Part shown: one piece after another, positions 5,807 to 62,263 of the stretch | Layout of the letters: each line of letters opens with the position of its first letter | Position numbering within the stretch: the stretch's first letter is position 1 | Origin: Candidatus Poribacteria bacterium | GTDB taxonomy: Bacteria > Poribacteria > WGA-4E > WGA-3G | DNA length: 64,000 nt | Assembly (NCBI GenBank): GCA_003635315.1 | Contig: PYJD01000040.1 | Coordinates: 65,276 to 129,275, forward strand | Direction: 5' to 3' | Notes under the pieces: model-generated | Told to the model about the DNA's origin: nothing | Database searches by the model: none | Seen by the model: only the letters and a program-made list of their open reading frames with translations | Made by a program: the position numbers and the translations under genes

Positions 5807-6955
5807 ATGTCGCAAAAAAGACGTATAATGAATGAAGAAATTAAACAAGAGGATAAGTTCATTGATCTTGTTCTCGGGTGTTATTCATTCATAAAAGACA
5901 ATGCTAAAATTATTACAATTGTTACTGCAGTCGTAATTGTTGCAGTTGTCGGATATATGGTTTATGATCAGAATCAGAAAACCACCTATGCTAAAGCATC
6001 TGCCCACTATTCTGAAGCTATCACTACATATAAAGATGCTGAGAAGGATTTCTTAGATACATCCGAACCAACTAATGAGACAGAAAATGAAGATGAAACT
6101 GAAAAAACTACATTTCTTGAAGCAGAAGAAAAACTAAAAGCGTTTATTCAGAAATATCCAAATACCATATTTGCTGACAAAGCACAGTACCAATATGCAA
6201 AGTGTCTATACTATCAAGAGAAATATCCTGAAGCACGGAATGAATTTCAGGTCGTTGTAGACAATCATAAATCAGAAAATGAACTAATTGCATTGTATGC
6301 ACAAAAGGCTATCGGAAACTGTTACGAACAAGAAGGAGATTACACTAAAGCCATCTCCGCATATGAAGCAAATTCATTTCCAACAACTTCGAATCTCCCA
6401 CCACAAATTAGACAGTATGTCCTAACTGGCGCAAAATTTAATCAAGCCCTATGCTATGAAAAACTCAATCAAATTGAAGATGCTAAAGTCGCATATCAAG
6501 ATGTTATCGATGAATTTGAAAAAACCATTCAGACTGGATTAGACCAGAAAAGTCATGATTTACTCAATCATGCTAAAGAAGTAATTACAATAATCGAAGA
6601 TGATTTAGACCTAACTGAAGCCACGCAATTAGAGACCCAAGACCTCTCCTTTGATGCCCTTATAGCCTATACAGATACAATACGGAATTATAAGGTATCA
6701 AAGGATATTCAAGATGGTTTGCCAAAAGAAATACGTAAACGTATTAAAATTTACGAAGACTTAGCAACTTCTTTCATTAAAAATGTACAATTAGCAATAG
6801 AAGCAGATAAAATGGGTAGTCGTAGTTCCGCATTAAATAGTTACAATCGTATTACAAATCTTACTGATTTAGGATTAAATAGGAATTTCTATGAACGTGC
6901 CCTTCTAAATTATGACCGACTAAATCTTTCAGCACAAGTGGTGTCAAATGAATAA
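5807..6955 (+). CDS. membrane-anchored tetratricopeptide-repeat (TPR) protein
   Basis: 382 aa. It has an N-terminal TM helix (IITIVTAVVIVAVVGYMVY) followed by TPR-like repeats. It overlaps the downstream PD40 gene by 8 nt (operon). Confidence 0.6.
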   Translation: MSQKRRIMNEEIKQEDKFIDLVLGCYSFIKDNAKIITIVTAVVIVAVVGYMVYDQNQKTTYAKASAHYSEAITTYKDAEKDFLDTSEPTNETENEDETEKTTFLEAEEKLKAFIQKYPNTIFADKAQYQYAKCLYYQEKYPEARNEFQVVVDNHKSENELIALYAQKAIGNCYEQEGDYTKAISAYEANSFPTTSNLPPQIRQYVLTGAKFNQALCYEKLNQIEDAKVAYQDVIDEFEKTIQTGLDQKSHDLLNHAKEVITIIEDDLDLTEATQLETQDLSFDALIAYTDTIRNYKVSKDIQDGLPKEIRKRIKIYEDLATSFIKNVQLAIEADKMGSRSSALNSYNRITNLTDLGLNRNFYERALLNYDRLNLSAQVVSNE

Positions 6956-7955
6956 TTCAAGATATCATATTATACAAACGAAACTTATAAACGCACTTAT
7001 TTTTACTATAGTCTGTTTACTACTGATTCTTCCAGTTAATGTTGACGCACAGCCACAAGGGAGAATCGCCTATGCCGTTTCTGGATTCAATGACAAAGTA
7101 GGTAGATTAGATTTTAATCTCCATATGACAACTTTCACTCCAGATGGTGATTTTAAAACCCTACCCTTAAACCAATCAGGTATGTATCCTGCTTGGGGAC
7201 CTAAAGGGGATACTCTATATTTTATACAACGGGCTGCAACGCAGTCACATGTATATTCTATTAATATCAATAACCCCAGAAATAAAACCAAACACACCCC
7301 TGTTAGTGGAACATATCGTTTTTTAGCTGTATCACCCAATGGTAAAAAGTTGGCTTTTAATGGGTGGACGAATGAACAAAGACAACAGGATAACCAGATT
7401 TGGATTCTTGATATTGCTTCCGGGGAAATGGAAGTTATGACGCAAATCCCTCATTTTGGTAGATCCTTCTTTTTTTGGGGTATTACATGGTCACCAAATA
7501 GTAAACAACTCGCTTTCTCCTTGGAAAGATCTGGTGGGTTAGAACAGTTATACATATTAGATACTGAAACAAAGGAAATTGATATTCTAACTGAACTAAA
7601 TATCGATTTCTATCCTGTATGGTCCCCAGATGGAAAGAATATTCTGTTCCGCAGATGGAATAGGGAATTTGATACCCTAACTACTATTGATGTTGAGACA
7701 CGTGCAATCAAACCTTTATTTGATGTTGATAAACAGACCGGTATGTGGACAGATTGGTCATTTGATGGTCAACAAATTATCTATTCTCGATGGGGTGTTT
7801 TTTATCTACACAATATTGAGGATGGTAAAACCGAACAACTGTTTGAAATTGATGGTAGTATCTTCGTAATTTCATGGTGGAAACATGAGGTATTACCTGT
7901 TGAACCCAGACAGAAATTAGCTACAACTTGGGGAGATGTTAAGCAAAGCAATTGA
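6948..7955 (+). CDS. secreted TolB-like PD40 beta-propeller protein with conserved C-terminal LATTWG tail
   Basis: 335 aa. It has a signal peptide, repeated 'WSPDGK/WSPNSK' PD40 blades, and a C-terminus 'VLPVEPRQKLATTWGDVKQSN' shared with the three LamG paralogs. Confidence 0.7.
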   Translation: MNNSRYHIIQTKLINALIFTIVCLLLILPVNVDAQPQGRIAYAVSGFNDKVGRLDFNLHMTTFTPDGDFKTLPLNQSGMYPAWGPKGDTLYFIQRAATQSHVYSININNPRNKTKHTPVSGTYRFLAVSPNGKKLAFNGWTNEQRQQDNQIWILDIASGEMEVMTQIPHFGRSFFFWGITWSPNSKQLAFSLERSGGLEQLYILDTETKEIDILTELNIDFYPVWSPDGKNILFRRWNREFDTLTTIDVETRAIKPLFDVDKQTGMWTDWSFDGQQIIYSRWGVFYLHNIEDGKTEQLFEIDGSIFVISWWKHEVLPVEPRQKLATTWGDVKQSN

Positions 7956-38582: not shown

Positions 38583-38898
38583 TTATCCCCTCTTTAAATA
38601 ATATCTGAGATCAAAATTAATTTATGATTTCAATATTAAGTTTGCTAAAAACGAAACGCAATTTTAATAAAACATTAGAATCATTAAATCTCAATAACGT
38701 GAGACTCTTAAAACTAAATAACCATGTTTATTGTAATACTCTATGGAATTGATTTCAACATTATATTATATCAAAATTATTGAATATCAGACGATAATAA
38801 TAAGAACACATCATTTGGTAAATACATTATTTTTTGTAAATTTATGTCTTTTTAATCAATCACAACAGTAATACATATACTATCGTTATGTTTAAAAT

Positions 38899-38928
38899 GT
38901 TACACTTTTTGACACATTGTGTGTCATT
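38899..38928. promoter_or_regulatory. repeat-family core motif site 3 (short inverted fragment), about 315 nt upstream of and co-oriented with the isomerase-nagB operon
   Basis: 'ctatcgttatgtttaaaatgttacactttttgacacattgtgtgtcatttgaaattg' is identical over 35 nt to the site at 3177-3211. Downstream similarity to repeat block D (cccgccagtcctacactgg). Confidence 0.5.
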
Positions 38929-39662
38929 TGAAATTGTGCTATCCCGCCAGTCCTACACTGGTTTTACAGCCACTTTTTTCAGGTAAGTAGAATTTACCAA
39001 AATGATGAATATTGTGTCTTTTACTCTTTTACATGTTCTCTGACTTTTGTTCTTTTGGATGGGCGATATTATACGCATCCATACTATCATAATCCATTTG
39101 ATCTGTCTGAATTTTATTTTCAATACACATTTATTCCTTAACATAATTTTTACGAGACTAAAGTATAGATATAACCACACTTGACTACAGAAATCTCTCC
39201 TTTTTGTTTAGCAAAAGTATAGTAGAACTACACAATATAATATTATATCTATTTATTTCTATTATGGCAACTCTTTTTAAATATTTTGATTAATCCTTTA
39301 GTTGTAAGCTGTTTTGGTCTTCTTCATTTTATTTTGAGTATTTTATAGTACATCTCACTAATCATATATTTGATTAGTATACCATTTTAATAATCGTATT
39401 TCCATTAACCGTTGTAAAGAAAGGCGGGAATCGGAATTCCTGCTACACAGGAGAGTGTGATAATGACATACCATTTAATGAGACGCAGCCAGATTGGATA
39501 GAGGGACCGTTGTCCGTTTCTCCGCATGGGAAATTGCCATCGTTGTGGGAGAGAAAAAACAGAACTTTTCACAGTAGATTTTATGCAAAATCAACAGAAA
39601 ATCCTACAGACAATAAGTTCTTTGGGTAATAACATATCTAAGAAATGGTATAAGACTCTTAT

Positions 39663-39697
39663 ATAAAAACAAAAAAGGGCAACTTCAGAGTTGCCCC
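39663..39697 (-). terminator. intrinsic terminator of LamG paralog 1 (minus strand)
   Basis: On the minus strand: GGGCAACTctgaAGTTGCCC followed by TTTTTTGTTTTT. Confidence 0.75.
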
Positions 39698-39715
39698 TTC
39701 TATGTTATTTAGTAC

Positions 39716-40501
39716 TTAGTCTCTATTGGACTTTATCTGCCCCCAAGATGTTGCCAGTTTATCCGTAGGTTCTACAGGAAGAAGATCTCCGTCCATAACA
39801 CTTTGTACTTCATCAGCATCAAGTGCTCTGTCATATACATATAGATCGTCAATATAGAATGTAGCTGCTCTATAGCCTGTTTTACCAATGTATAGTTTTT
39901 CAGCTCCTTGTGCATGCTTGGCAGGAACACCTATCTTCAATTGTTCTTCACCATTAATATAAAAGTGTAAAGTACCATCTTTCTTAATACCTGCAACATG
40001 GTACCACTGTTTCAATTCAAATAAACTACCTTCACCGGTTGGACCAGCACAACCTGTTCCTTGGTTTCCAGGATTGAAACGCCAATGTATATTTAATGAA
40101 TTTGGACAGATCCAGATCCCAGGTGATCTATCTGAACCAGGAGCTTTTTTCGCAATTATTTGACTCCAGGCACCGTTGTGCGCAGAAATGAAGTTTAACC
40201 AAAATAGGTAACTATTATCTTGATAATCTTCCAATTCTTTGAATGAATTTACCTGGACATCCGCATTGGCATCTCGAATTTCAAGTGAGCCTTTACCATA
40301 TTTTTTCTCACCAGTTGATATATCAGCATTCCCAACTATATTCGCATGGTTTCCACCGCCAGTTTCATCTTCGATTTTTCCTCCATCCTCTCTATCAAAA
40401 CCGAAGTATAAGATCAAACCCTGATCTTTAACCGCAGCAGGTGATGTCTGAATTGCCACAAATAGTAACAGTATTAATAGTGTATATATTGTATATTTCA
40501 T
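39716..40501 (-). CDS. secreted LamG-like (Laminin_G_3 / concanavalin-A-like lectin) domain protein, paralog 1, with C-terminal LATTWG tail
   Basis: 261 aa with a signal peptide. It has 'LILYFGFDREDGGKIEDETGGGNHA' and 'DDLYVYDRALDADEV', which are LamG jellyroll signatures. The C-terminus is 'LLPVEPTDKLATSWGQIKSNRD'. Confidence 0.75.
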   Translation of the reverse strand: MKYTIYTLLILLLFVAIQTSPAAVKDQGLILYFGFDREDGGKIEDETGGGNHANIVGNADISTGEKKYGKGSLEIRDANADVQVNSFKELEDYQDNSYLFWLNFISAHNGAWSQIIAKKAPGSDRSPGIWICPNSLNIHWRFNPGNQGTGCAGPTGEGSLFELKQWYHVAGIKKDGTLHFYINGEEQLKIGVPAKHAQGAEKLYIGKTGYRAATFYIDDLYVYDRALDADEVQSVMDGDLLPVEPTDKLATSWGQIKSNRD

Positions 40502-40630
40502 TTCATTCCTCCGTAGTCAGATTAAACCATTTCAGTATTGATTAAATATCCTATATTAGGTATAAAGTAAGTAAAAATGATAATAAATATAGGGACAGTA
40601 CATAATCTGTCCCTATATTATAGATTGTAA

Positions 40631-41449
40631 TTAATCTCTACTTGTCTTGACCTGTCCCCAAGTTGTTGTAAGTTTAGCTTGAGGTTGGACAGGAAGTAGA
40701 TCACCATCCATCACACTTGCCACTTCACCCTCATCAAGGGCACGGTCATATACATAAAGATCATCGAGAATAAACTTTGCTGAGTTATATCCCGTTCTTC
40801 CAATGTATAACCGCTCATTGCCTTGGGCATGGTCGGCGGGAACATTGTTTTGCTGCGTCCGTTTACCATTTACATAGAATGATATCTGACTACCTTTTTT
40901 CGAACCAGCGATATGATACCATTCACCTATCTCAAAAACAGAATCCTCACCAGTAGGACCTGCACAATGGGGACCTTGGTTACCCGGGTTAAATCGCCAA
41001 TGGATATGAAGAGGTATACGGCTACATGTCCATATACCTGGTGATCGATCTGAACCTGGAGCCTTCTTTGCAATGATCTGATCCCAACCCCCAGAGTTTG
41101 CTTTTGTGAAATTAACCCAAAAAAGGAATGTATTATCCTGATAGTCTTCTAATTCATTAAATGAATCTACCGTTACGCTTGAGGTATTTGAATCGCATAA
41201 TAACGCACCTTTGCCGTGCACAACATCATCAGTGACAATTTTCGCATCAGCAACAATTGTCGCATCATTTCCACTACCAGTTTCATCAATGATCTTACCA
41301 CCACTCTCTTTGTCAAAACTGAAGTAGAGGATTAAACCGTCGTCTTTAACAGCCGCACTTGCAGTGTGTAGCCCACCTATAAATAGGAATAGGACTGACA
41401 AATATACCAGTAATTTCATTTTTACCTCCGTGATTGAGTTATGCTCCAA
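40631..41449 (-). CDS. secreted LamG-like domain protein, paralog 2, with C-terminal LATTWG tail
   Basis: 272 aa (possibly starting at the internal MKLLV). The conserved core 'QIIAKKAPGSDRSPGIWTC...HIHWRFNPGNQGPHCAGPTGE' is shared with paralogs 1 and 3. The C-terminus is 'LLPVQPQAKLTTTWGQVKTSRD'. Confidence 0.75.
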   Translation of the reverse strand: MEHNSITEVKMKLLVYLSVLFLFIGGLHTASAAVKDDGLILYFSFDKESGGKIIDETGSGNDATIVADAKIVTDDVVHGKGALLCDSNTSSVTVDSFNELEDYQDNTFLFWVNFTKANSGGWDQIIAKKAPGSDRSPGIWTCSRIPLHIHWRFNPGNQGPHCAGPTGEDSVFEIGEWYHIAGSKKGSQISFYVNGKRTQQNNVPADHAQGNERLYIGRTGYNSAKFILDDLYVYDRALDEGEVASVMDGDLLPVQPQAKLTTTWGQVKTSRD

Positions 41450-41768
41450 TTTATTATCACTATAAAGAACAATTTTATAGTATCATTATACTATATTAGA
41501 GTAGTTTAAATGTCAAGAAAAAACAGGTTTATTTAGTTTTCTAAATTTCCAATACATTTTATCTATTCCGTTATTGTTTATATTGGTATCTTATATAGGT
41601 CTTTAGTTCCATCGGGACGGAATGTTTATAGAATAAATGCAAACCACCTCTCTTGAGATCCGACAAATGCCATATGGAGAATCTCGATTGCAGATTATAG
41701 TAGAGTGAATAAATAATGAGACATTTCAACTTTTTGCGAAGAACGTCCAGCGTAGGGGCGAGGTGACC

Positions 41769-41791
41769 TCGCCTATTCTAAAATGTTCCAT
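41769..41791. repeat. GC-rich palindromic motif CGTAGGGGCGAGGT-G-ACCTCGCC (one of three CGTAGGGG(C/T)GAGG copies)
   Basis: It is a perfect 8-bp inverted repeat GGCGAGGT/ACCTCGCC in the divergent LamG2/LamG3 intergenic region. Related copies lie at 41847-41860 and 4397-4420. Confidence 0.5.
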
Positions 41792-42238
41792 TAATTCAAA
41801 AAATTACTATAAATAAATATTTCGCTAATCCAGACCATAAAAACATCGTAGGGGCGAGGTTTCCCAACCCGTATATTACCGAAAATCTAAATAACCGATG
41901 AATTTTAAAACTAAATAACCTTCAAGAAAAACCGTTGATTGGAATTTTTATGTATGTATTACTTATTTTATTTTGTGGAGGATTACATGGTTATCTATTG
42001 GGAGAAATTGAATCTGAAAACGGTTGCATGAATTAGTTATTTTATTTATGATTTTAACTTGACAGATTTAATCCTATCTTGTAAAATTGTTTTAATTATA
42101 TGAAAAGTGTGTTTTCTTTAATCCTGAAGAAAATATACAGAATCCTAATAAATGCAACTGGTTCTCAGGATCGTATAAACAAGCTTTTCTCACCAAACAA
42201 AATAGTAGTTATTGTATATCATGAGGAGGAATTAACTC

Positions 42239-43018
42239 ATGCGTTTTTTCATTTATCTTTTTGTTGCTACACTCTTCTGTGTTGGCACTGTTCTCTCCAC
42301 AGAAGCTGCATTGGATGATAATCTCGCACTTTACTTCAGTTTTGATAAGGACATTGATGGTACAGTTTATGATGGAACTGGAAACGGAAATCACGGTACG
42401 CTGAATCTGGCAACTATTAATGCTGATGATAAAAAAGTCGGATTAGCATCATTAGAAATAAAAGATGCAAATGCCGTTGTCGAAGTTGAATCGTTTTTTG
42501 ACTTAGAAGTATACCAAGACAACAGTTTTGTTTTTTGGCTTAACTTTATCGCTGCTCATAATGGTGCTTGGAGTCAGATTTTTGCTAAAAAAGCTCCAGG
42601 GTCTGACCGTTCTCCAGGGGTCTGGATCTGTCCCAACTCTCTAAATATCCATTATAGATTTAATCCAGGTAACCGAGGTACAGGTTGTGTTGGTCCAGGA
42701 GGCGAGGGTCAATTATTTGAAACAAATAAATGGTATCATATTGCTGGTGTCAAAGAGAGTGGTAAATTTAGATTCTACATAGATGGTGCTCAAATTGAAG
42801 AACACGATGTACCGTCTCCACATGCTCAAGGTCCTGAAAAACTTTATATCGGGAAAACAGGCTATCGATCCGCTACTTTCCTCATGGATGACTTTTTCCT
42901 TTTCACAAGAGCAATTTCTGCCGATGAAGTCAATGCCATTAAGAATGGGCAACTCATTGCTGTTGAACCTGAGGATAAATTAACCACTACATGGGGTATC
43001 ATCAAAGACAAACAGTAG
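42239..43018 (+). CDS. secreted LamG-like domain protein, paralog 3, with C-terminal LATTWG tail
   Basis: 259 aa with a signal peptide and the RBS 'gaggagg'. It has the same conserved core and Cys pair (WICPNS…GCVGP). The C-terminus is 'LIAVEPEDKLTTTWGIIKDKQ'. Confidence 0.75.
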   Translation: MRFFIYLFVATLFCVGTVLSTEAALDDNLALYFSFDKDIDGTVYDGTGNGNHGTLNLATINADDKKVGLASLEIKDANAVVEVESFFDLEVYQDNSFVFWLNFIAAHNGAWSQIFAKKAPGSDRSPGVWICPNSLNIHYRFNPGNRGTGCVGPGGEGQLFETNKWYHIAGVKESGKFRFYIDGAQIEEHDVPSPHAQGPEKLYIGKTGYRSATFLMDDFFLFTRAISADEVNAIKNGQLIAVEPEDKLTTTWGIIKDKQ

Positions 43019-43120: not shown

Positions 43121-44434
43121 ATGAAACAAACAATTCAGATGTGCTTATATTTATTCATTCTTTTTCAATTAGTTCTACGTTCTGTTTGGTGTGAAGATAA
43201 TTTACTACCGAATGACCCTATTGATCTGGGTATACACTATTTAGAAATGGAACAATATGATAAGGCTTATGATGCTTTTGATGCAGTTAGAAAAAAAGAA
43301 CCCAGTAGCGGCATCTATTGTTATATTGGAATCGTCTTACAAGAACAAAATAGACTCAGTGATGCCGTAGATGCATATCAAAAAGCCTTAACCTATTCCG
43401 CACCACAACAAATCCATTCCTCTGCCCACCTTCATTTGGGAATTGTTTACAAAGCACAAGGTAATTTAGAACTCGCTGAATCACATCTTCAGGAAGCCCT
43501 TATACGCGCGCCCAATACTGTTGAGGCATATATACACCTCGGTGAAACATATCTTCGGCAACACAAATTGGACAAGGCTGAAAAAGCATATCGCCATAGT
43601 ATAAAATTGAACCCTATTTATACTGAATCCTACTATGGTTTAGGGAGAGTGGAAGAATTGCAGAACCATTTTGACTCTGCAATTCAACAATATCGTCTTG
43701 CAATAGAAAAAAATCCATACGCTCCTGACGCATATTATCGTCTTTCATTGGTTCTCCGACGTATAGATAAGTCTGGAGATGCTGAAGCAGCAATGCATCA
43801 GTTTAAAAAAATGAAGGATTATTCAGATAATGTACATAGATTTCGAGAGACGATTTATAAAAATCCGAATAATCCTATCTTGTATCTGAAATTAGGACAA
43901 TTACACGAACAACATGATAATCAATCGGATGCCCAAAGAGTTTACCAGATGGCTATCTCTCTGTATCCAACTTATCTACCGGTATATCATAGCCTTGGTG
44001 AAGTCTTAATCGGTAAAAGAGAGTTAGAAAAAGCAACGGCTGTATATCATAAAATCACGGAAATTGACCCCAATGATGTTCAAGCTTATCTAAAATTAGG
44101 TGTCATATATATAAATCGTAGTAAATATGACCCTGCAATAACTTCATTTAAGCAAGCAATTAATGTTGATAACACATCTGCTGAAGCCTATAATAACCTC
44201 GCTCGCGTCTATGCAGGACTTGGTGATAAAACAAGTGAAGCAATACATCTGGCGAAACGTGCAATTGAGATATCACCGATTTCAAAACATTATGACACGC
44301 TTGCTTACTCTTACTATCGCAATAAACAATATACGGAAGCCTTAAAAGCTATTGAGCATGCACTCACATTGACTCCAGGGGTTAAGGCTTTTGAAAATCT
44401 TCGATCCGAAATCCAAGAAAAAATCAAACAGTAA
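43121..44434 (+). CDS. secreted tetratricopeptide-repeat (TPR) protein
   Basis: 437 aa with a signal peptide and many 34-aa TPR units (…AYxxLGxxYxxxxxxxxAxxxYxxAL… repeated about 10 times). Confidence 0.75.
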   Translation: MKQTIQMCLYLFILFQLVLRSVWCEDNLLPNDPIDLGIHYLEMEQYDKAYDAFDAVRKKEPSSGIYCYIGIVLQEQNRLSDAVDAYQKALTYSAPQQIHSSAHLHLGIVYKAQGNLELAESHLQEALIRAPNTVEAYIHLGETYLRQHKLDKAEKAYRHSIKLNPIYTESYYGLGRVEELQNHFDSAIQQYRLAIEKNPYAPDAYYRLSLVLRRIDKSGDAEAAMHQFKKMKDYSDNVHRFRETIYKNPNNPILYLKLGQLHEQHDNQSDAQRVYQMAISLYPTYLPVYHSLGEVLIGKRELEKATAVYHKITEIDPNDVQAYLKLGVIYINRSKYDPAITSFKQAINVDNTSAEAYNNLARVYAGLGDKTSEAIHLAKRAIEISPISKHYDTLAYSYYRNKQYTEALKAIEHALTLTPGVKAFENLRSEIQEKIKQ

Positions 44435-48164: not shown

Positions 48165-49157
48165 ATGGAAAAGATACTACTGATCCGTCTCAGTTCCCTC
48201 GGTGACATAGTATTAACAACACCGGCTATTCGTGCAATACGATCACATCATCCCAATGCATACATTGCAATGTTGGTAGCAAAACAATCTGCTGATATAT
48301 TGCTACATAATCCCAACCTTAATGAGATTATACATTTTGACAGATTATCTAAGCATAAAGATACAGCTGAGATGTACCGGATCCTCCGTATATTACGTCA
48401 ACGAAATTTCTCTCTATCCATTGATTTTCAACGCAAATTCCGTACTGAACTACTTATGTACTTATCTGGTGCAACCGACCGGGTTGGTAAGGGAATCCTC
48501 TCTACTGTACGTGTTCCTGAATCTGGCAACAAACACGCAACAGAACACTATTTTGACCTGTTACATGCTGTGGGAATACCTGCTGAAGATAGACATTTGG
48601 AAATCTACCTTCATGAGTCAGAACGGACTAAGGCTTGCCAATTATTCAAACATGAAGGAATAAATGATGGGGACTTAACAATTGGATTATTCCCAGGGGC
48701 AGGTTGGAAGTTGCGTGAATGGATGCCGGAACGTTTTGCAAAAATAGCGGATAGACTTGTTACCAATTTCAAAGCACAAGTGGTATTGTTCGGTGGTCCA
48801 AATGATGTAACCCTTGTAAATCATATAGCCAATACTATGGATGAATTGGCAATTAATTTTGCTGGGAAACTTAACTTACGAGAATTATCGTCATGTATTG
48901 AAAAGTGTGACCTTTTTATATCTAATGATACAGGACCGATGCACATTGCAACAGCTGTAGGAACACAAACTGTTGCTCTTTTTGGACCAGGAAATCACAT
49001 AAGATTTCAACCTATTGGTGACAACCACACACTTATAAGATACGATGTTCCTTGCAGCCCATGTAAACAATTCACGGATAAATGTAAAGATAATATCTGT
49101 ATGAAGGGAATAACAGTTGATGATGTATGGGATTCTATATGCAGGATACTCAATTAA
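48165..49157 (+). CDS. glycosyltransferase family 9 (ADP-heptose:LPS heptosyltransferase-like)
   Basis: 330 aa with 'ILLIRLSSLGDIVLTTPAIRAIR' and 'FISNDTGPMHIATAVGTQTVALFGP' GT9 motifs. Confidence 0.8.
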   Translation: MEKILLIRLSSLGDIVLTTPAIRAIRSHHPNAYIAMLVAKQSADILLHNPNLNEIIHFDRLSKHKDTAEMYRILRILRQRNFSLSIDFQRKFRTELLMYLSGATDRVGKGILSTVRVPESGNKHATEHYFDLLHAVGIPAEDRHLEIYLHESERTKACQLFKHEGINDGDLTIGLFPGAGWKLREWMPERFAKIADRLVTNFKAQVVLFGGPNDVTLVNHIANTMDELAINFAGKLNLRELSSCIEKCDLFISNDTGPMHIATAVGTQTVALFGPGNHIRFQPIGDNHTLIRYDVPCSPCKQFTDKCKDNICMKGITVDDVWDSICRILN

Positions 49158-54599: not shown

Positions 54600-54665
54600 C
54601 AAATAAATTCATAAGTTAAGCTAAATAACTGCGAAAAAATACAATTGTAATAACGCAACATTTTA

Positions 54666-54681
54666 TGGCACAATTATTGCA
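54666..54681 (+). promoter_or_regulatory. sigma-54-dependent promoter P1 of rsmH/dcw cluster (TGGCAC-N5-TTGCA, perfect consensus)
   Basis: 'TGGCACaattaTTGCA' matches the sigma-54 consensus at all fixed positions with canonical spacing. The predicted TSS is about 54692, 15 nt before the rsmH ATG (54707) and including its RBS. Confidence 0.55.
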
Positions 54682-54706
54682 TAAATATTATAGAGGAAGC
54701 ATAGAA

Positions 54707-55660
54707 ATGTCACTGGACCATGTACCTGTTTTGTCAAATGAAATCCTTAATTATCTAAATCCTAAACATGTAGGGATTATTGTTGATACAACGGTTGGGT
54801 TAGGTGGACACAGCCAAAATATTCTTAAACATTTTGATTCCATTAATCGTTTAATTGGAATAGACATAGATAAATCAGCCATTGCTATCGCCAAAGAAAA
54901 GTTATATGAGTATAAAGATAAAATATACTTAGTTCATGATAACTTTGCAAATCTTATTAATATATTAGAAAAAATTGGCATATATAAGGTGGATAGCGTC
55001 TTGATGGATTTAGGTGTATCCTCATTACAGCTGGATACCCCATATAGAGGATTTAGTTTTCAAGCATCTGGTGATTTGGATATGCGTATGGATGCTGGCA
55101 TAGGTAATTCTGCTGCGGATATAATTAATGACTTTCCACCTGAAGAACTTCTAAGTATTTTTGAGGAATTTGGTGAAGAAAGGCATTCGAAACGGATTGT
55201 TAGAGAAATCATCTCAACACGGAAACAAGAAAGAATAACAAACACATTACAACTTGCGAGCATTGTTGAAAAAGCATATCCCAACAAAAAAAGTCCAAGG
55301 AGTAGGTCTAATAATCGACGTATTCATCCTGCAACCCGCATCTTTCAAGCATTACGAATTGTAGTAAATAAAGAACTTGATAACCTAAAAGAGGGATTGG
55401 ACGCTGCAGTCTCTCTAATCAATCCCGGTGGGTGTCTATGTATAATTAGCTTTCATTCACTGGAAGATAGAATTGTTAAAAGAAGGTTTCAAACACTAAG
55501 TAAAAATTGCATTTGTCCTCCAAAGACACCTATATGTATCTGTAATCATAAAAAAGAACTGAATATTATAACAAAACGTCCTGTTATTCCTTCTGTCTAT
55601 GAAATAGAAAATAACCCACGGGCAAGAAGTGCCAAACTACGGGTTGCAACTAAGGTATGA
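54707..55660 (+). CDS. rsmH: 16S rRNA (cytosine1402-N4)-methyltransferase
   Basis: About 317 aa from 'MSLDHVPVL'. It has 'VDTTVGLGGHS' and the 'MDLGVSS' RsmH/MraW motifs. It is the first gene of the dcw cluster. Confidence 0.9.
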   Translation: MSLDHVPVLSNEILNYLNPKHVGIIVDTTVGLGGHSQNILKHFDSINRLIGIDIDKSAIAIAKEKLYEYKDKIYLVHDNFANLINILEKIGIYKVDSVLMDLGVSSLQLDTPYRGFSFQASGDLDMRMDAGIGNSAADIINDFPPEELLSIFEEFGEERHSKRIVREIISTRKQERITNTLQLASIVEKAYPNKKSPRSRSNNRRIHPATRIFQALRIVVNKELDNLKEGLDAAVSLINPGGCLCIISFHSLEDRIVKRRFQTLSKNCICPPKTPICICNHKKELNIITKRPVIPSVYEIENNPRARSAKLRVATKV

Positions 55661-55737
55661 CTATCTTTGTATAACGGTGTTAAATGGACGTTAAAGTGTA
55701 TCAAAATTGACAATACTACGTATAATTTATTATATAT

Positions 55738-56079
55738 ATGCGTGATTCAAAATTATTCTCAAAACTATTGACAGAAGAAGAAAATTCTCAGCCGAAAGTT
55801 GCAATGTTTTTTGTATACTTAGTGTTAGGTTTATCCCTATGTGTATTCGGGGCAAGTATATGGTTTTCGTCATATCAGAAGAGAGTTTATCTTAGAATTA
55901 GTCCAGCTTTTGATACGCAACAGAGTAAGATTCAGCATGAAATACATAAGCTTCTTCTGGATGAAAACAAATTAACTGATGTTGAGAGAATTCGAAAAAT
56001 CTCAATTGAACTTGGACTTGTGGAATATACAGGATCAATCGTTGAATTACAAGACAGGAAAATCACTAACAGACAATGA
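55738..56079 (+). CDS. ftsL: FtsL-like cell-division protein (single TM + coiled coil)
   Basis: 113 aa with a single TM helix and a C-terminal coiled-coil-like segment. It overlaps ftsI by 4 nt and lies between rsmH and ftsI. Confidence 0.6.
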   Translation: MRDSKLFSKLLTEEENSQPKVAMFFVYLVLGLSLCVFGASIWFSSYQKRVYLRISPAFDTQQSKIQHEIHKLLLDENKLTDVERIRKISIELGLVEYTGSIVELQDRKITNRQ

Positions 56080-57992
56080 ATCATATTACTAAACTCTCAA
56101 TACGCAGGCTTGTTTTAATCCTAATTTGTCTACAATTAGGTTTTATCGCCCTTCTTACGAAATTATATATACTACAAAATACTGATTCAGAAGGAAGAAC
56201 AGCCTCTCGAATTGATTGGCGTACAAGAAGAAACCGTGTCATAAAACGAGGTAAAATCCTTGATCGACATGGTACTGTATTAGGGATCAGTCAAGATAGG
56301 TTATCTGTTGCTGCCGATCCAAAGACTCTCAATAGAAAATCGAATGCATATACTGTAGCAACGCAATTATCCCCAATCTTAGATACTCCTAAAACAGAAC
56401 TTCTATCCTTGTTAAAAAAGAAAAAGAATGATAAGTATGTTGAATTTGTCTGGTTGAAAAAAGGGATAGACTTTGAGAAATTAGACGAAATTCGGGCAAT
56501 TACCAAAAGACATAGAGGTCTTAAGATAGAAGTTGATCCAAAAAGGGTTTACCCGAAAAAGCAACTGGCATCCCAAGTAATAGGTTATCTTAATGATTTA
56601 GATATTGGTGAGGGAGTCGAATTCCAATATCATAAATACCTTGCGAAGCTTGAACCCAATATTCAAAGAAGTCATAATCAGAATGACTCTACCCCTTCAA
56701 ACCAAACCGCAAACATAAGTCTTGGAAACACTGGAAGTAATGTTGTGCTTACAATAGACGAATTTATCCAGAGTGTCACAGAAAAAGAACTTGCTCAAGG
56801 TTGTAAGGAGTGGAATGCATCAAAAGGTACAGCTATTGTATTGTCTGTTCCTACTTCAGAGATCTTAGCTATGGCAAGTTACCCTTCTTATGATCTAAAT
56901 GATCAGAGCAATGCTGATGAAGAAGCCAAACGAAATCTCGGTATATGGTATATGTTCGAACCAGGTTCAATCTTTAAAATCGTTGCTTCTTCTGCCGTGT
57001 TAAATGAAGGAATAATGACTCATGAATCAACAGTTTTCTGTGAGTATGGTCGTTACCGTCTGCCTAACCGAAGAGCCATAAAGGATGTATCAGGAAAAGG
57101 ACACTTGTCTCTTACGGAAGTCTTACATAAGTCAAGTAACATTGGAATGATAAAAATTGTTGAAAGGTTAGGTCCTGAATTATTTAGAGATTATACGGAA
57201 GACTTTGGATTTGGTAAAAAAACAGGTGTTGATCTCCCCTATGAAAAGAACGGTAATCTGTATTCACTACGTAAATGGGATGTGAATTCTTTAGCATCTG
57301 TCCCCTTTGGTCAAGGTATTTCAGTTACACCTTTACAGATGGTTAATGCCCTTACGGTCATTGCAAATGGTGGTATCTTACGAAGACCTTATATTACCAA
57401 GGAGATTCGAGATGATCATGGTAAACTTGTGAAGATGAACTATCCCACAGAAATACGTAGAGTTTTACGACCTGAAATTGCTAAGTTAATGACAAATATC
57501 CTTGTAGGAGTCGTAGAGAATGGAAGTGGAAGACGCGCAAGAATTGAAGGTGTAAATGTTGCTGGTAAAACCGGAACTGCTCAGAAAGCTGAAAGGGGTA
57601 AAGGGTATTCTGCTGGTAAAGAGGTTATGTCATTTATGGGTTTTCTACCCGCAGAAGATCCTAAAATTGCAATCATCGTCACACTTGATGAACCTTCTGG
57701 GGCAAGATTTAGCGGTACGATTGCTGCACCAATATTCAAAAATATTGCAGCCGAAACTATAAAATATATTCAACAGACCGCATTCTTCGATTCAATTCCA
57801 AATACAAGGTATGTTAAGAATAATCTTAATGCAAAACAAACAACGCAAGCTTCTACTACACCATCAACCAATTTAGATAGATCTCAATCATTTAATACAA
57901 CAATATCACCATCTAATAAACCCGTACAGTCTTTATCACAAAAACAAGACGCCTCCGACTATAGTCTACGTAAGAATGGAGAAGGTTTATGA
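56076..57992 (+). CDS. ftsI: peptidoglycan D,D-transpeptidase FtsI (class B penicillin-binding protein)
   Basis: 638 aa with an N-terminal TM anchor and the motifs SxxK 'SIFK', 'SSN' and 'KTGT'. Confidence 0.9.
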   Translation: MNHITKLSIRRLVLILICLQLGFIALLTKLYILQNTDSEGRTASRIDWRTRRNRVIKRGKILDRHGTVLGISQDRLSVAADPKTLNRKSNAYTVATQLSPILDTPKTELLSLLKKKKNDKYVEFVWLKKGIDFEKLDEIRAITKRHRGLKIEVDPKRVYPKKQLASQVIGYLNDLDIGEGVEFQYHKYLAKLEPNIQRSHNQNDSTPSNQTANISLGNTGSNVVLTIDEFIQSVTEKELAQGCKEWNASKGTAIVLSVPTSEILAMASYPSYDLNDQSNADEEAKRNLGIWYMFEPGSIFKIVASSAVLNEGIMTHESTVFCEYGRYRLPNRRAIKDVSGKGHLSLTEVLHKSSNIGMIKIVERLGPELFRDYTEDFGFGKKTGVDLPYEKNGNLYSLRKWDVNSLASVPFGQGISVTPLQMVNALTVIANGGILRRPYITKEIRDDHGKLVKMNYPTEIRRVLRPEIAKLMTNILVGVVENGSGRRARIEGVNVAGKTGTAQKAERGKGYSAGKEVMSFMGFLPAEDPKIAIIVTLDEPSGARFSGTIAAPIFKNIAAETIKYIQQTAFFDSIPNTRYVKNNLNAKQTTQASTTPSTNLDRSQSFNTTISPSNKPVQSLSQKQDASDYSLRKNGEGL

Positions 57993-59539
57993 AGCTGCAG
58001 AATCTCCTTGATGGTGTTGAAGTTAGTGAATTGATTGGTGATTCTAATTCGGAAATAGTTGGCATCGTCAGTGATCACCGTGAAGTAAAAGAAAATTATG
58101 CATTCCTCTGTTATCAAGGATTGAATGTTGATGGACATGACTTTATACCAGGAGCGATAAAGAATGGTGCTAAAGTCATTATATCTGAAAGACCTATTCA
58201 ATCACTCCCCGCTGGTGTTACCAATGTAATTACCCCAAATGGACGGAGAGCACAAGCCATTTGTGCCGGAAATTGGTATAGAAACCCCACAAACAATTTA
58301 AAACTGATAGGTATCACCGGTACGAACGGGAAAACCTCCACAGCACATCTATCCTACAGTATTCTTAGATCACAAGGATATAAGGTCGCTGTTCTCGGCA
58401 CTGTTGGACATTCTTACGAAACACAAACATCCCCCGATAAGAAAAAACACAAAGAAAAAATTCAAATACCCGCACTCCTGACTACACCAGATGCTTTTAA
58501 ACTCAATGCAATTTTTAGGGAATTAGTTGATTCTGGTGTGGAATATGTTGTTATGGAGACTTCATCTCAAGGTCTTGCTCAACATAGATTAGCTGGATTA
58601 AGTTTCCACACCGCAGTTTTCACTAATTTCACTCAAGACCACCTTGATTACCATAATACAATGGAAGAATATCTTGATGCAAAATTGATGTTATTTGACC
58701 AATTAGAATCAGATGGAATAGCCATCCTAAATAGTGATTCTTCTGTCAAAAATCAGATTGTAGAACGGATTTCCAACCAACACATTCTTACATACGGAAT
58801 TAAGACCAAGGCAGACCTAACACCTCATGCGATAGATATTTCATTAAAAGAATTAACTTTTACTACCTTTATAACGGAAAATATTAAAAATTTACTAAAT
58901 ACCTCATGTAATCATATTCATACCAGATTACAATTACTTGGTTCTTATAATATATATAATGCTCTTGCTGCCATTGGCGTTGGACTACGTTACAACTGCA
59001 GCGAACAGGCAATTTCTGATGGACTTGCATCCACTGTTGTCCCGGGACGGTTTGAACGTGTATCAACTGCAAATGGGAATAATGAGTTTGCAGTAATTGT
59101 TGATTACGCACACACACCTGACGGATTGGAGAATGTGTTAACTGCTGCACGTGATATATCAGATGGTCGATTAATTTCTGTTTTTGGTTGTGGTGGGGAT
59201 CGAGATAAAAGTAAACGTGCAAAAATGGGTAAAATTTCTACTGATATAGCCGATTTTAGCGTTATCACTTCTGACAATCCACGCACTGAAAATCCTGATG
59301 AAATCATCTCTGACATTGTGTCAAATTTACCACATGATGCAGCATTTATCTGTATTTCTGATAGACGAAAAGCTATCCAACAAGCTATTTTAAAAGCTGA
59401 AAAGAATGATGTTGTTGTAATTGCTGGAAAGGGACATGAAGATTACCAAGAAATTAATGGACAAAGATTTCCATTTGACGATAGAAGGGTTGCATCTGAC
59501 ATACTGCAACATATTCATACCGATGATATGAATTCTTGA
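57989..59539 (+). CDS. murE: UDP-N-acetylmuramoyl-L-alanyl-D-glutamate--2,6-diaminopimelate ligase
   Basis: 516 aa with the Mur ligase P-loop 'GITGTNGKTSTAHL' and the C-terminal 'DNPRTE' region. Confidence 0.9.
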   Translation: MKLQNLLDGVEVSELIGDSNSEIVGIVSDHREVKENYAFLCYQGLNVDGHDFIPGAIKNGAKVIISERPIQSLPAGVTNVITPNGRRAQAICAGNWYRNPTNNLKLIGITGTNGKTSTAHLSYSILRSQGYKVAVLGTVGHSYETQTSPDKKKHKEKIQIPALLTTPDAFKLNAIFRELVDSGVEYVVMETSSQGLAQHRLAGLSFHTAVFTNFTQDHLDYHNTMEEYLDAKLMLFDQLESDGIAILNSDSSVKNQIVERISNQHILTYGIKTKADLTPHAIDISLKELTFTTFITENIKNLLNTSCNHIHTRLQLLGSYNIYNALAAIGVGLRYNCSEQAISDGLASTVVPGRFERVSTANGNNEFAVIVDYAHTPDGLENVLTAARDISDGRLISVFGCGGDRDKSKRAKMGKISTDIADFSVITSDNPRTENPDEIISDIVSNLPHDAAFICISDRRKAIQQAILKAEKNDVVVIAGKGHEDYQEINGQRFPFDDRRVASDILQHIHTDDMNS

Positions 59540-59612
59540 AGCAATATAATTTCACTTAACAAGATGAAATGTCTTCTATGTAATTATAACTTGAAACATT
59601 CAAACCTAAGTC

Positions 59613-60371
59613 ATGCATTCGGTTAAGTTTATTGAGATTGACAATCTCAAAGTCGCCTACCGTGTTGGTGGATTTGGCTCACCTGTCGTACTCTTACATG
59701 GATGGGGAGCAGAATCAGGAACATTTAAAAGTGTCTTTGATCATCTATCAAGTTCACACCAAGTATATGCTCTTGATTTACCCGGCTTTGGACTTAGTGA
59801 AATACCACCTGAACCATGGAATGCAACAGATTATGCAAAATTACTTTCCAGTTTTCTTGATAAACTTAATATTGGAAAGGCTTCACTGATAGGACATTCA
59901 TACGGCGGTAGGATTTCAATTGTAATCGCCGCTAACGAACCAGAAAAAATTGAGAAGGTTATCTTAGTAAATAGTGCTGGTTTAAAACCGAAAAGAAATC
60001 TGAAATATTATTGTAAATATCTACTATCAAGATTCGGACGTGTTTTTCGAAGATTAGGGAGTTTTGGAAATAGTTTTGCTGACAGAATTGCAGATATAGT
60101 TGGATCAAGAGACTACAAAGAGGCAGGTCCAATGAGGGGAACAATGGTAAAATCAGTAAATCAGGATTTGCATCCATGCTTGTCAAAAATTAGGAATCAG
60201 ACGCTGTTGATATGGGGTGAACATGATAAGGATACACCACTATCTTCTGGAAGAATAATGGAAAAAGAGATACCAAATTCTAAACTTGTTGTATTAAAGG
60301 ATGCCGGACATTTCTCCTACTTAGATCAAACTGAACAATTTGTTCAGATGGTAAGTAATTTCTTAGATTGA
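59613..60371 (+). CDS. alpha/beta-fold hydrolase
   Basis: 252 aa with the HG oxyanion motif 'LLHGWG', the nucleophile elbow 'GHSYGG' and a C-terminal 'DAGHF'. It is inserted between murE and murF. Confidence 0.75.
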   Translation: MHSVKFIEIDNLKVAYRVGGFGSPVVLLHGWGAESGTFKSVFDHLSSSHQVYALDLPGFGLSEIPPEPWNATDYAKLLSSFLDKLNIGKASLIGHSYGGRISIVIAANEPEKIEKVILVNSAGLKPKRNLKYYCKYLLSRFGRVFRRLGSFGNSFADRIADIVGSRDYKEAGPMRGTMVKSVNQDLHPCLSKIRNQTLLIWGEHDKDTPLSSGRIMEKEIPNSKLVVLKDAGHFSYLDQTEQFVQMVSNFLD

Positions 60372-60532
60372 GATATTAATACTTTTAGCAAGTCTTGCTT
60401 TTTTGAAGTCATAAATAGAATAACTGCATCACTAAATGCAGAATTAAATCAATTCATAGTAGCGCGATGAATTCTCTTGCAGTAACTATTTTGTTACAGC
60501 ACTTTCATTGCGCTTTTCTAACTTAGGATATT

Positions 60533-62155
60533 ATGGTTAACGAAATACTCTTTCTTGGTGTTTTAATTATCTGCTTTGTAAGAGCTATTATTAGAGCAAT
60601 TCAGGGATTACATATTTTACAACTTGATGGATACAAACCTGGCAGATATGCAAAATGGGTTACAAACCACATCAGCCAATGCATTGAAATCAAGGATTTA
60701 ACAATTATTGTTATATTCTCAATACCTGTAATTATATACCCTCCATTTCTTGAGGGTAATTGGATTTTTCCTGTGCTGGCAATAGTTTGGATGGTTTTCC
60801 AACTATATGCTATAACAACCCGTAAGAAGGTTGATGTTAAAAAACCTTTGGTCTATACATTCCGGGCGAAACGGTTGTTGAGTTTTGCATTATTCTTACT
60901 GTTAGGACTTAGTGTAATTTTTGCATTATTTATACAGGAAAATAGATGGCGTCTTATTGCTTTTCTATTTAGTGAGATAACAATACCAATTATGATCTTA
61001 AGTAGTTTTCTCATCTGGCCTGTTGAACAGTTCATTAACAGTTTGTATTTACGGGATGCAAGAAGACGCATTAAATCTCTGGAACCTACTGTCATAGGCA
61101 TAACTGGAAGCTATGGCAAAACAAGCACAAAATATATACTCCATCAGATTCTATCACAAAAATATAATACTTTGATGACACCTGATAGTTATAACACGCC
61201 AATGGGAATCTGCAAAGTAATTAGAGGGGATTTATTACCTGAACATGAATATTTCATCGTTGAAATGGGGGCATATAAACGTGGAGATATTAAGGTGTTG
61301 TGTGAGCTTGTGTTTCCTGAGATTGGAATTCTTACCGCCGTCGGCCCTCAGCATTTAGAAAGATTCAAGAGTATTGAAAATACCACAAAAGCAAAATATG
61401 AACTAATTCAGTCTTTACCAATGAATGGATTAGCTGTCATCAACAATGATAATAGTATTTGCGAAGATTTAGCCGAGAAAACGGACACCGTCCCTGTTAT
61501 CCGATATGGGGTTAATTCAAAGGATACAAATAGATTAACTGCAGATGATATCAAACAATCTGAAAATGGTTTGTCATTTACACTTCAAGACAATACTTCA
61601 GGAACTATAGAGATTTCAACTAAGCTTCTTGGAAAACATAACGTGTCCAATATACTTGCAGCTGTGGCAGTTGCCCAACACTGTGGTATGACATTAAATG
61701 AGATAAGTGATGCTCTTAAGGCGTTGGAACCTGTTCCTCATCGTTTGCAATTAATGGATTCAGGTACTGGTATCACTGTGATCGACGATTCCTTTAATGC
61801 CAACCCTGAAGGTGCAAGGGCTGCCCTTGAAGTATTGCGAGATTTTCTGAGTAAAGGAACTTCACAAAAAGTATTAGTTACCCCAGGGTTAGTTGAGTTA
61901 GGTGAGTTAGAATACGATGCAAATAAGAAATTTGGATCAGATGCAGCTAAGGTTTGTGATCTCGTTATCCTTGTAGGACCTGCGAGAACATTGCCTATAT
62001 TAGACGGGTTAAAAACTCAAGATTATCCTGAAGATAAAATATATGTCGCTAAGAATCTAAACGATGCACAACAACAACTTGCTTTACGCCTTTCACCTGG
62101 GGATGTCGTCCTTTTTGAAAATGACTTACCCGATAATTATAACGAATCAGTCTAA
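60533..62155 (+). CDS. murF: UDP-N-acetylmuramoyl-tripeptide--D-alanyl-D-alanine ligase MurF with N-terminal polytopic membrane extension
   Basis: 540 aa. Residues 1 to about 165 form 5 hydrophobic helices. Then come the Mur ligase P-loop 'GITGSYGKTSTKYIL' and the MurF signature 'IDDSFNANPEGA'. Confidence 0.85.
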   Translation: MVNEILFLGVLIICFVRAIIRAIQGLHILQLDGYKPGRYAKWVTNHISQCIEIKDLTIIVIFSIPVIIYPPFLEGNWIFPVLAIVWMVFQLYAITTRKKVDVKKPLVYTFRAKRLLSFALFLLLGLSVIFALFIQENRWRLIAFLFSEITIPIMILSSFLIWPVEQFINSLYLRDARRRIKSLEPTVIGITGSYGKTSTKYILHQILSQKYNTLMTPDSYNTPMGICKVIRGDLLPEHEYFIVEMGAYKRGDIKVLCELVFPEIGILTAVGPQHLERFKSIENTTKAKYELIQSLPMNGLAVINNDNSICEDLAEKTDTVPVIRYGVNSKDTNRLTADDIKQSENGLSFTLQDNTSGTIEISTKLLGKHNVSNILAAVAVAQHCGMTLNEISDALKALEPVPHRLQLMDSGTGITVIDDSFNANPEGARAALEVLRDFLSKGTSQKVLVTPGLVELGELEYDANKKFGSDAAKVCDLVILVGPARTLPILDGLKTQDYPEDKIYVAKNLNDAQQQLALRLSPGDVVLFENDLPDNYNESV

Positions 62156-62263
62156 TCAAGAAACTGTGTACGGTCCTTTAATGAATAGAAATAATAGACT
62201 ATATCTGTTGAATATCACAATATATTGTAAATTTAGAGTTTGAATCTATAAGGAATTTTAACT

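Follow-up and report, generated by a model that had tools for sequence, protein, structure and literature searches.

Tagged genes in the window

A 64,000-bp stretch from a Candidatus Poribacteria genome (contig PYJD01000040.1 of assembly GCA_003635315.1, positions 65,276 to 129,275 of the forward strand), here called the window, was found to contain four genes for predicted secreted proteins that end in a shared peptide of about 20 residues, here called the tail. Three of these proteins have a laminin G-like domain (LamG1, LamG2 and LamG3) and the fourth is a TolB-like PD40 protein. The four C-terminal tails quoted in an earlier reading of the sequence alone (the sequence-only reading) matched the window translations exactly. 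They were located by a six-frame scan and by a degenerate 45-nt DNA pattern, GTNNNNCCNNNNNNNAARYTNRCNACNWSNTGGGGNNNNRTNAAR, which corresponds to V-x-P-x-x-K-L-[AT]-T-[TS/..]-W-G-x-[IVM]-K:

7890..7952, plus strand: PD40 tail, VLPVEPRQKLATTWGDVKQSN
39719..39784, minus strand: LamG1 tail, LLPVEPTDKLATSWGQIKSNRD
40634..40699, minus strand: LamG2 tail, LLPVQPQAKLTTTWGQVKTSRD
42953..43015, plus strand: LamG3 tail, LIAVEPEDKLTTTWGIIKDKQ

The proteins bearing the tails (the carriers) are encoded by the following open reading frames (ORFs):

6948..7955, plus strand: PD40 (TolB-like) beta-propeller carrier with an N-terminal signal-like segment (Pfam PD40, 8e-18; partial match to TIGR02800)
39716..40501, minus strand: LamG1 carrier (Laminin_G_3, signal peptide; Pfam)
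40631..41419, minus strand: LamG2 carrier (Pfam), with the probable start at ATG 41419
42239..43018, plus strand: LamG3 carrier (Pfam)

In the six-frame scan of the window the core KL[AT]T[TS]WG was present in these four ORFs only, 8–14 codons before the stop codon, and the DNA pattern was matched four times as compared to 0.00 times expected from 100 shuffles. A hidden Markov model (HMM) built from 110 distinct tails likewise gave no window matches beyond these four at E < 1e-9. Besides, a weak tail-like peptide, VSPHGKLPSLWERK, was noticed at approximately 39516–39557 on the plus strand; it scored only 9.9 bits against the tail HMM and is probably a chance match.

The carriers had been described as four otherwise unrelated proteins. 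This was shown to hold for PD40, which is unrelated to the LamG trio, but it was overstated for the three LamG proteins, which are paralogs with 49–62% pairwise identity when the tail is left out, and the window thus contains only two unrelated carrier families (LamG, n = 3; PD40, n = 1). Similarity between PD40 and the LamG proteins was confined to the last 19–28 residues (tblastn). At the DNA level the four tails showed 62–73% identity, and 3–7 of 9–11 identical residues were encoded by different codons; the tails have therefore diverged in DNA and codon use, and their similarity has been kept at the peptide level and does not reflect a recent DNA copy. Recent gene conversion between PD40 and LamG was ruled out by this synonymous divergence and by the presence of the tail in every PD40 ortholog. 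The tail is real and not an artefact, and it is not explained by any described family.

PD40 orthologs (54–93% identity) all retained the tail, and they were from Poribacteria wherever the source was named. For LamG1, 332 homologs were found at E ≤ 1e-5, the best 120 of which were 57–90% identical and also from Poribacteria wherever an organism was named. The closest relatives of the window LamG1 and PD40 were 87–93% identical. The window LamG proteins scored 60–70 bits against Laminin_G_3 (PF13385), for which the gathering cutoff is 27.6, and Foldseek matched LamG1 to lectin-like domains (E ~1e-9) in clostridial neurotoxins and trans-sialidases, as well as to a GH43 ancillary domain. With a Pfam score above the cutoff and a jelly-roll fold in the AlphaFold2 (AF2) model, the LamG carrier domain belongs to the Laminin_G_3/ConA-like lectins. 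For LamG2 the ORF list placed the start at TTG 41449, which adds 10 residues ahead of the signal peptide; the alignment with its paralogs begins at ATG 41419, which is more likely to be the start.

Spread, form and structure of the tail

Screening of 185,579 species genomes (596 Gb) with the DNA pattern gave at least 116 stretches, and at least 120 further stretches were found in metagenomes and two matches in a viral collection. Since the pattern carries about 43 bits, less than one chance match is expected in 596 Gb by our own estimate. Among the 116 genome stretches listed, 105 were titled Poribacteria, 10 were from taxonomically unlabelled metagenome-assembled genomes (MAGs) and one was a 3.7-kb contig of a "Deltaproteobacteria" MAG. 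The motif-bearing stretches fetched from the genome, metagenome and viral collections are referred to by L numbers, and 236 of these loci were scored for neighbouring genes. When 1.84 billion representative proteins were searched exhaustively by HMMER with a profile of 22 positions, made only from the window tails and the tail of the ortholog P0001, 69 matches were obtained at E ≤ 1e-3; about 60 of them lay a few residues at most from the C-terminus, and the rest were mostly short read-through fragments, with P0029 being a repeat artefact. A word-indexed protein search with a tail-only profile, a method too insensitive for a 20-residue motif, returned one candidate, P0001, which is a fragment of a PD40 ortholog. 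A regular-expression or HMM search for other proteins with the tail, as proposed in the sequence-only reading, thus revealed many more in genomes and metagenomes, nearly all from Poribacteria. The same reading had allowed that the motif might be limited to local paralogs; this was not so, as approximately 37 unrelated carrier clusters were present in more than 236 loci, again nearly all from Poribacteria. The tail is restricted almost entirely to this one phylum.

One of the viral matches was on a T4-like phage contig (L118; IMGVR_UViG_3300021791_000527) with genes for DNA polymerase, clamp, clamp loader, UvsX and a DnaB-like helicase (PHROGs). Directly after this replication module, at L118:12770-13696, a 308-aa LamG-like protein is encoded, with a hydrophobic segment near its N-terminus and KVEPKLKLTTTWGEVKK (KLKLTTTWGEVKK) as its tail. 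A phage-borne copy of a tag from the host lineage is compatible with a signal that is read by host machinery. With this L118 gene the phage may draw on the tag system of its host; the gene is also a possible marker for host assignment.

The diversity of the carriers, for which a check had been suggested, was confirmed. When the carriers were compared by blastp without their tails, the genome set yielded about 19 clusters and the combined set, which comprised 311 tagged ORFs, yielded 37, with unrelated folds. The Pfam families detected were Laminin_G_3 (by far the largest), F5/8 type C, 3keto-disac_hyd (DUF1080-like), CBM9, NPCBM, PD40, Kelch, LVIVD, Esterase, Lactamase_B (metallo-beta-lactamase), DUF4960 and LTD, and several clusters had no Pfam match. 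Most carriers were thus lectin-like, similar to carbohydrate-binding modules, or propellers, and a few were hydrolases. In the genome set an N-terminal signal-like hydrophobic segment was present in 118 of 125 carriers, and none of the 125 had a transmembrane-like 19-mer (KD ≥ 1.6) outside the N-terminus. Carriers in this set were 210–368 aa long (median 260), and those from metagenomes reached 431 aa. The combination of a signal segment with a small single domain shows that the tag marks small exported proteins.

Carriers were often found in tandem arrays of two to six paralogs, and most are beta-rich with free sheet edges. Both observations would suit self-assembly, in which the tail acts as a donor strand between carriers or as an oligomerisation handle and no separate receptor is involved. 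The carrier folds are however unrelated (jelly-rolls, propellers of six to eight blades, alpha/beta hydrolases and the metallo-beta-lactamase fold), which makes a common acceptor groove implausible, and the AF2 monomers are complete with no missing strand. We therefore regard self-assembly as very unlikely.

The position of the tail was nearly fixed. Of 252 scored matches, 250 had the motif ending 0–12 residues ahead of the stop codon; in genome loci all 128 matches ended 1–12 residues before it, 78 of them exactly 3 residues before, and in metagenome loci 122 of 124 scored matches ended 0–10 residues before it. After the conserved Lys nearly all matches had 0–7 variable residues, with three outliers of 10–31. 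The consensus was L-[AP]-V-[ED]-P-x-x-K-L-[TA]-T-T-W-G-x-[IV]-K followed by 1–5 mostly basic residues, often terminated by Arg, and a variable linker rich in Gly, Asp and Glu preceded it. Sixty-three of 128 tails ended in Arg, and the final 1–5 residues of all 128 included 119 Arg and 29 Lys. Positions that were conserved though not forced by the pattern were, relative to the Val, L/T/F at -2, A/P/S at -1 and E/D/Q at +1. Among neighbouring genes and orthologs that had not been targeted by the pattern, the variants KLSTTWG, KVATTWG, KLATTWA, KLAVTWG and KAATTWG were detected, as well as KLVTTWS in a PD40 clade.

A divergent class, FSVSPAGKKFTMWGWLKRVER (K-K-F-T-M-W-G-W-L-K), had the same spacing as the canonical tail and alternating hydrophobic residues. 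In L120:1150-10393 (ENA ERZ23495297 scaffold_785) six tandem PD40-like paralogs of 320–340 aa ended in the divergent VSPAGKKFTMWGWLKRVER, and four of the six were no longer recognised as PD40 by Pfam. Further divergent variants, RVTFWGRIK and ATLWGWLKQL, were observed in L121. The metagenome scan for the divergent "TxWGWLK" class gave no matches.

The information content of the tail was compared to that of the carrier domain and was found to be 3.50 versus 3.35 bits for LamG and 3.33 versus 3.13 bits for PD40 orthologs, which shows that the tail is under purifying selection as strong as that on the folded domains. AF2 models were made of LamG1 and PD40 from alignments of 75 and 64 sequences, respectively. 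Both had a mean predicted local distance difference test score (pLDDT) of 87, with most domain residues above 90, but pLDDT was below 50 for the tail (residues 244–261 in LamG1 and 315–335 in PD40). The last confidently modelled residue was about 236 of 261 in LamG1, where a helix (229–236) came last, and about 310 of 335 in PD40, where a strand (304–310) did. These models rule out the tail as a part of the carrier fold, and the concern that it might be embedded in the folded domain was thereby answered. Disorder together with conservation is the signature of a functional linear motif.

Within the tail AF2 drew a low-confidence helix (residues 248–258 in LamG1 and 329–334 in PD40). This helix is one of the points in favour of a membrane or lipopolysaccharide anchor, in which an amphipathic, Trp-containing tail flanked by Lys and Arg would bind leaflet or lipopolysaccharide non-specifically, as the C-terminal helices of PBP5/6 do. 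The spacing of L, W and I/V at i, i+4 and i+7 points the same way, as do the basic residues that flank the core and dominate the last 1–5 positions. On the other hand, the helix has pLDDT below 50, and Gly and three Thr disfavour it. The tail was confirmed to be non-hydrophobic, the mean hydropathy of the last 20 residues being -0.66, with only three hydrophobic side chains. Besides, the near-invariant T-T-W-G and V-[ED]-P on unrelated carriers are too sequence-specific for lipid binding. An anchor of this kind is improbable in our view. The core is rich in beta-branched residues and its hydrophobic moment was 0.57 at 160 degrees versus 0.33 at 100 degrees; these two properties and the alternation in the divergent class are consistent with the tail forming a strand on binding, none of them being decisive.

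Neighbouring genes and the TPR proteins

As the sequence-only reading had noted, a TPR gene adjoins each of the two tagged loci in the window (Pfam):

5807..6955, plus strand: membrane-anchored TPR_21/TPR_6 protein; overlaps the start codon of PD40
43121..44434, plus strand: secreted TPR protein (TPR_1/2, signal peptide); directly downstream of LamG3

The two are of different families, the former TPR_21/TPR_6 and membrane-anchored, the latter classical TPR_1/2 with a signal peptide. The PD40 carrier was always preceded by a TPR_21/TPR_6 protein, with the pair also found in L001, L002, L043 and L077, and the gene order AhpC-TPR-PD40-MutS2 was kept in other Poribacteria. This arrangement resembles the yfgM-bamB and tolB-cpoB neighbourhoods of Proteobacteria, a resemblance that we take as a lead only. 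Orthologs of the secreted window TPR (about 50% identity) were found only in a syntenic locus in which two tagged LamG genes are followed by the TPR gene (L029, L030, L044 and L111); more distant secreted TPR proteins (23–34% identity to the window TPR) were encoded beside tagged LamG genes in about 15 further loci. A secreted TPR gene directly adjoined a tagged gene in 19 of 236 loci and was co-directional in 18, and 18 of the 20 TPR-adjacent carriers were LamG proteins. A "TPR cluster" obtained by blastp was rejected as one orthologous family, being heterogeneous and including a signal-less, cytoplasmic-looking TPR protein (TIR-like by eye). In a PADLOC scan of carriers and TPR proteins only generic TPR cross-matches were obtained.

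TPR domains bind C-terminal peptides, as in PEX5/PTS1 and Hop/EEVD. The co-encoded periplasmic TPR proteins might accordingly bind the tail as chaperones or adaptors, comparable to PEX5 with PTS1 or BamD with the C-termini of outer-membrane proteins. The 19 loci with an adjoining secreted TPR gene, 18 of them co-directional, speak for such a receptor, as do the window TPR orthologs that flank paired tagged LamG genes in four other genomes and the tagged PD40-TPR_21 pair kept in the four loci listed above. However, LamG proteins make up 18 of the 20 adjacent carriers, and F5/8 type C, DUF1080-like, esterase, Kelch and other carriers have no TPR neighbour; the TPR proteins involved are of different, poorly related families (23–34% identity); and the tail, unlike PTS1 or EEVD, varies in its last residues. 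A tail-independent module is also suggested by a frequent companion: a conserved Poribacteria cluster of tagged LamG, secreted TPR and CRTAC1-like FG-GAP/UnbV_ASPIC genes was found in L040, L052, L053, L057, L079, L085, L087, L090, L099 and L105, often beside radical-SAM, ftsZ and ftsA genes. The co-occurrence of TPR genes with carriers proposed earlier was therefore borne out for tagged LamG and PD40 genes but not for the other carrier families, and since most families have no TPR neighbour the adjacency may reflect LamG- or PD40-specific operons. The TPR linkage is real for two carrier families and is not a property of the tag itself, and a TPR receptor for the tail seems unlikely.

In 10 of 236 loci (L037, L045, L051, L067, L106, L112, L138, L205, L210 and L233) a polytopic membrane protein of about 650 aa with DUF6785 and DUF6784 was encoded no more than 8 kb from a tagged gene; the carriers concerned were from at least six families, and unlike the TPR genes the protein was not tied to LamG. 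It is a candidate for the machinery of tail sorting; its adjacency may also be due to chance, and it is given here as a lead only. Other recurrent non-carrier neighbours were GFO/Idh/MocA, PhyH, sulfatase and FGE genes, which occur throughout these Poribacteria loci.

The LamG genes in the window are flanked by ORF-free AT-rich gaps of about 0.8–1.1 kb (38583–39715 and 41450–42238), in which no LamG pseudogene was found by tblastn. A dcw cluster at 54665–63448 encodes MraW, a PBP3-type transpeptidase, two Mur ligases and Ddl and is interrupted by an alpha/beta hydrolase gene; together with a GT9 heptosyltransferase gene (48165–49157) it is consistent with a diderm envelope that contains peptidoglycan and bears lipopolysaccharide. 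A type II restriction-modification pair (N6_N4_Mtase DNA methylase followed by a TdeIII-type endonuclease) was noticed at 20647–23061 amid housekeeping genes. The G+C content of the window was 36%, compared to a median of 47% (range 33–63%) for motif-bearing metagenome loci, and the source organism is probably a low-GC lineage of Poribacteria. An Rfam scan of the window detected three tRNAs and nothing near the tagged loci.

Comparison with described sorting signals and the proposed role of the tail

The sequence-only reading could not match the tail to any described class, and this was confirmed: searches of Pfam, NCBIfam, PDB sequences and the searched literature gave no counterpart. The tail was left uncovered at E ≤ 10 by Pfam (2025) and by NCBIfam 20.0, which includes the TIGRFAM sorting models and was queried with the four whole window proteins and two isolated tails. 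PDB sequences gave chance matches only to the tail profile (E ~0.8), and no description of the Poribacteria tail was found in the full-text literature searched. Hence the possibility raised earlier, that a known C-terminal model would match, was not borne out, as Pfam, NCBIfam and PDB sequences did not cover the tail.

Among the known systems closest to the tail are PEP-CTERM/exosortase, LPXTG/sortase, GlyGly-CTERM/rhombosortase and MYXO-CTERM/myxosortase, which like the tail are short C-terminal regions on many unrelated proteins with signal peptides. The PEP-CTERM group also resembles the tail in its lineage-restricted spread, upstream signature (P-V-E-P in the tail) and basic end, and in its many copies per genome, which are probable for the tail as well. 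In that group, however, a hydrophobic transmembrane helix of about 17–20 residues lies between motif and basic cluster, whereas the tail has a polar to amphipathic core of 10 residues. Having no transmembrane helix (0 of 125 carriers) and no match to the NCBIfam models, the tail is not PEP-CTERM, GlyGly-CTERM, MYXO-CTERM or LPXTG, in agreement with the earlier reading. The likeness nevertheless suggests processing or attachment, in which V-E-P, the conserved K and the basic end would be cut or transpeptidated by an enzyme of the sortase, exosortase or PorU type, or would act as a degron for a PDZ protease, the DUF6785 protein possibly being involved. The tripartite layout (P-[V]-E-P, 10-residue middle, basic end) is loosely like that of PEP-CTERM, the many-to-one, lineage-restricted spread is typical of Haft-type sorting systems, and the DUF6785/DUF6784 protein is encoded near at least six carrier families (10/236 loci). 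Such an enzyme would however lack a transmembrane helix that presents the motif within the membrane, and the NCBIfam sorting-signal models did not match. The PEP-CTERM group is served by a membrane protease or transpeptidase of its own. For the tail, no gene for a protease or a sortase-like enzyme recurred beside the carriers and, within 8 kb of them, no sortase, exosortase or rhombosortase gene did; the DUF6785 adjacency may be chance. Taken together, these points make processing or attachment quite unlikely.

The C-terminal domain of type IX secretion system (T9SS) substrates is, like the tail, a C-terminal signal on Sec-exported proteins of diderms, and it directs them across or onto the outer membrane. 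It is a folded Ig-like beta-sandwich of about 70–100 residues, whereas the tail comprises about 20 residues that are unstructured in the AF2 models. As had been argued from its length, the tail is too short for such a domain and was not matched by TIGR04183 or TIGR04131; not being a folded domain, it is not a T9SS signal. TIGR04183-like (Por-type) C-terminal domains have been described in Poribacteria that have no T9SS genes, with the export route left open (Kamke et al., 2014; PMC3909097). The beta-signal of outer-membrane proteins ends in an aromatic residue; the earlier observation that the tail does not was upheld in general, with an aromatic last residue in only 20 of 128 tails, and as the carriers are jelly-rolls and propellers and not barrels, the tail is not such a signal. 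Type I secretion system substrates have no N-terminal Sec signal and are recognised by a signal of about 50 residues, often with RTX repeats; no RTX or other repeats were found in the carriers by the Pfam scans. Since the carriers have Sec signals, the tail is not a type I secretion signal, nor an encapsulin or bacterial microcompartment peptide.

Encapsulin and microcompartment peptides and the dockerin-cohesin pair resemble the tail as modular terminal tags with a flexible linker that bring unrelated cargo to one scaffold. Encapsulin and microcompartment cargo is cytoplasmic and without signal peptide, unlike the tail carriers with their signal-like N-termini, and no shell genes of either kind were among the recurrent carrier neighbours; dockerins are Ca-binding folds of about 70 residues, unlike the tail of about 20. 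PTS1-PEX5 and BamD with the C-termini of outer-membrane proteins are further cases in which a C-terminal peptide serves as address, and TPR genes are adjacent to tail genes in some loci. PTS1 is a conserved terminal tripeptide with a free carboxylate, whereas in the tail the last 1–5 residues vary and the conserved core is internal, so that neither a conserved extreme end nor a fixed distance from the carboxylate was observed. It is well established that TonB and TolA boxes are short beta-branched motifs in a flexible segment that dock by beta-strand augmentation on a periplasmic domain. Unlike the C-terminal tail, these boxes are N-terminal motifs of outer-membrane transporters, TolB or colicins, and their sequences are different; the likeness is one of analogy only.

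The core of the sequence-only reading, a short, non-hydrophobic, modular tag on different domain types that belongs to no described class, is thus supported. The tail is a modular, exposed, unstructured, strongly conserved and obligatorily C-terminal peptide on Sec-exported proteins of diderm type. We give a probability of about 0.5 to its being a lineage-specific sorting, anchoring or docking peptide for Sec-exported proteins that is recognised in trans. It would be a C-terminal address or docking peptide specific to Poribacteria, an exposed peptide that is recognised after export by a shared component of the envelope, with many cargo proteins and one receptor. Most likely, K-L-T-T-T-W-G-x-I-K would join a sheet or groove of the partner as an added beta-strand. 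The cargo (lectin-like modules, propellers and a few hydrolases) would be retained or displayed on the cell envelope, or handed to an export route across the outer membrane. It is possible, with the odds somewhat against it, that Poribacteria have a sorting or surface-display system of their own for folded Sec-exported proteins, hitherto unrecognised and with dedicated machinery, and that the tail is its cargo signal. Phages of these bacteria may exploit such a system.

Several points weigh against a docking peptide recognised in trans. Recognition in trans is deduced from modularity and conservation only, and no receptor, protease or translocon was identified for the tail. Several "invariant" positions are forced by the DNA pattern, so the sequence logo is partly circular, and real variation at these positions was detected in neighbouring genes (KLSTTWG, TTWA, KLVTTWS and KAATTWG). 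The core stops 1–5 residues short of the C-terminus and is followed by variable residues, which argues against classical recognition by a carboxylate clamp. AF2 drew the tail as a low-confidence helix and not as a strand.

The tail is best filed as a new instance of the known concept of C-terminal sorting or docking tags. Work on short tags of this kind has repeatedly brought new machineries of the envelope to light (sortases, exosortases, rhombosortase, T9SS and myxosortase). The tail lacks the transmembrane helix that defines nearly all such sorting tags and is represented in neither Pfam nor NCBIfam. Tagged proteins make up a large share, of diverse kinds, of the small exported proteins in Poribacteria, a dominant phylum of sponge symbionts that also inhabits sediments, lakes and the deep sea. 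For this uncultured phylum the tail offers a handle for annotation of the surface and secreted proteome, which is largely lectin-like and includes plausible binders of host glycans or matrix, for receptor search by phylogenetic profiling and for host assignment of phages with tagged genes. It also makes testable a question that has stood since exported proteins of Poribacteria were found to have sorting-like C-termini and no known secretion route (Kamke et al., 2014; PMC3909097).

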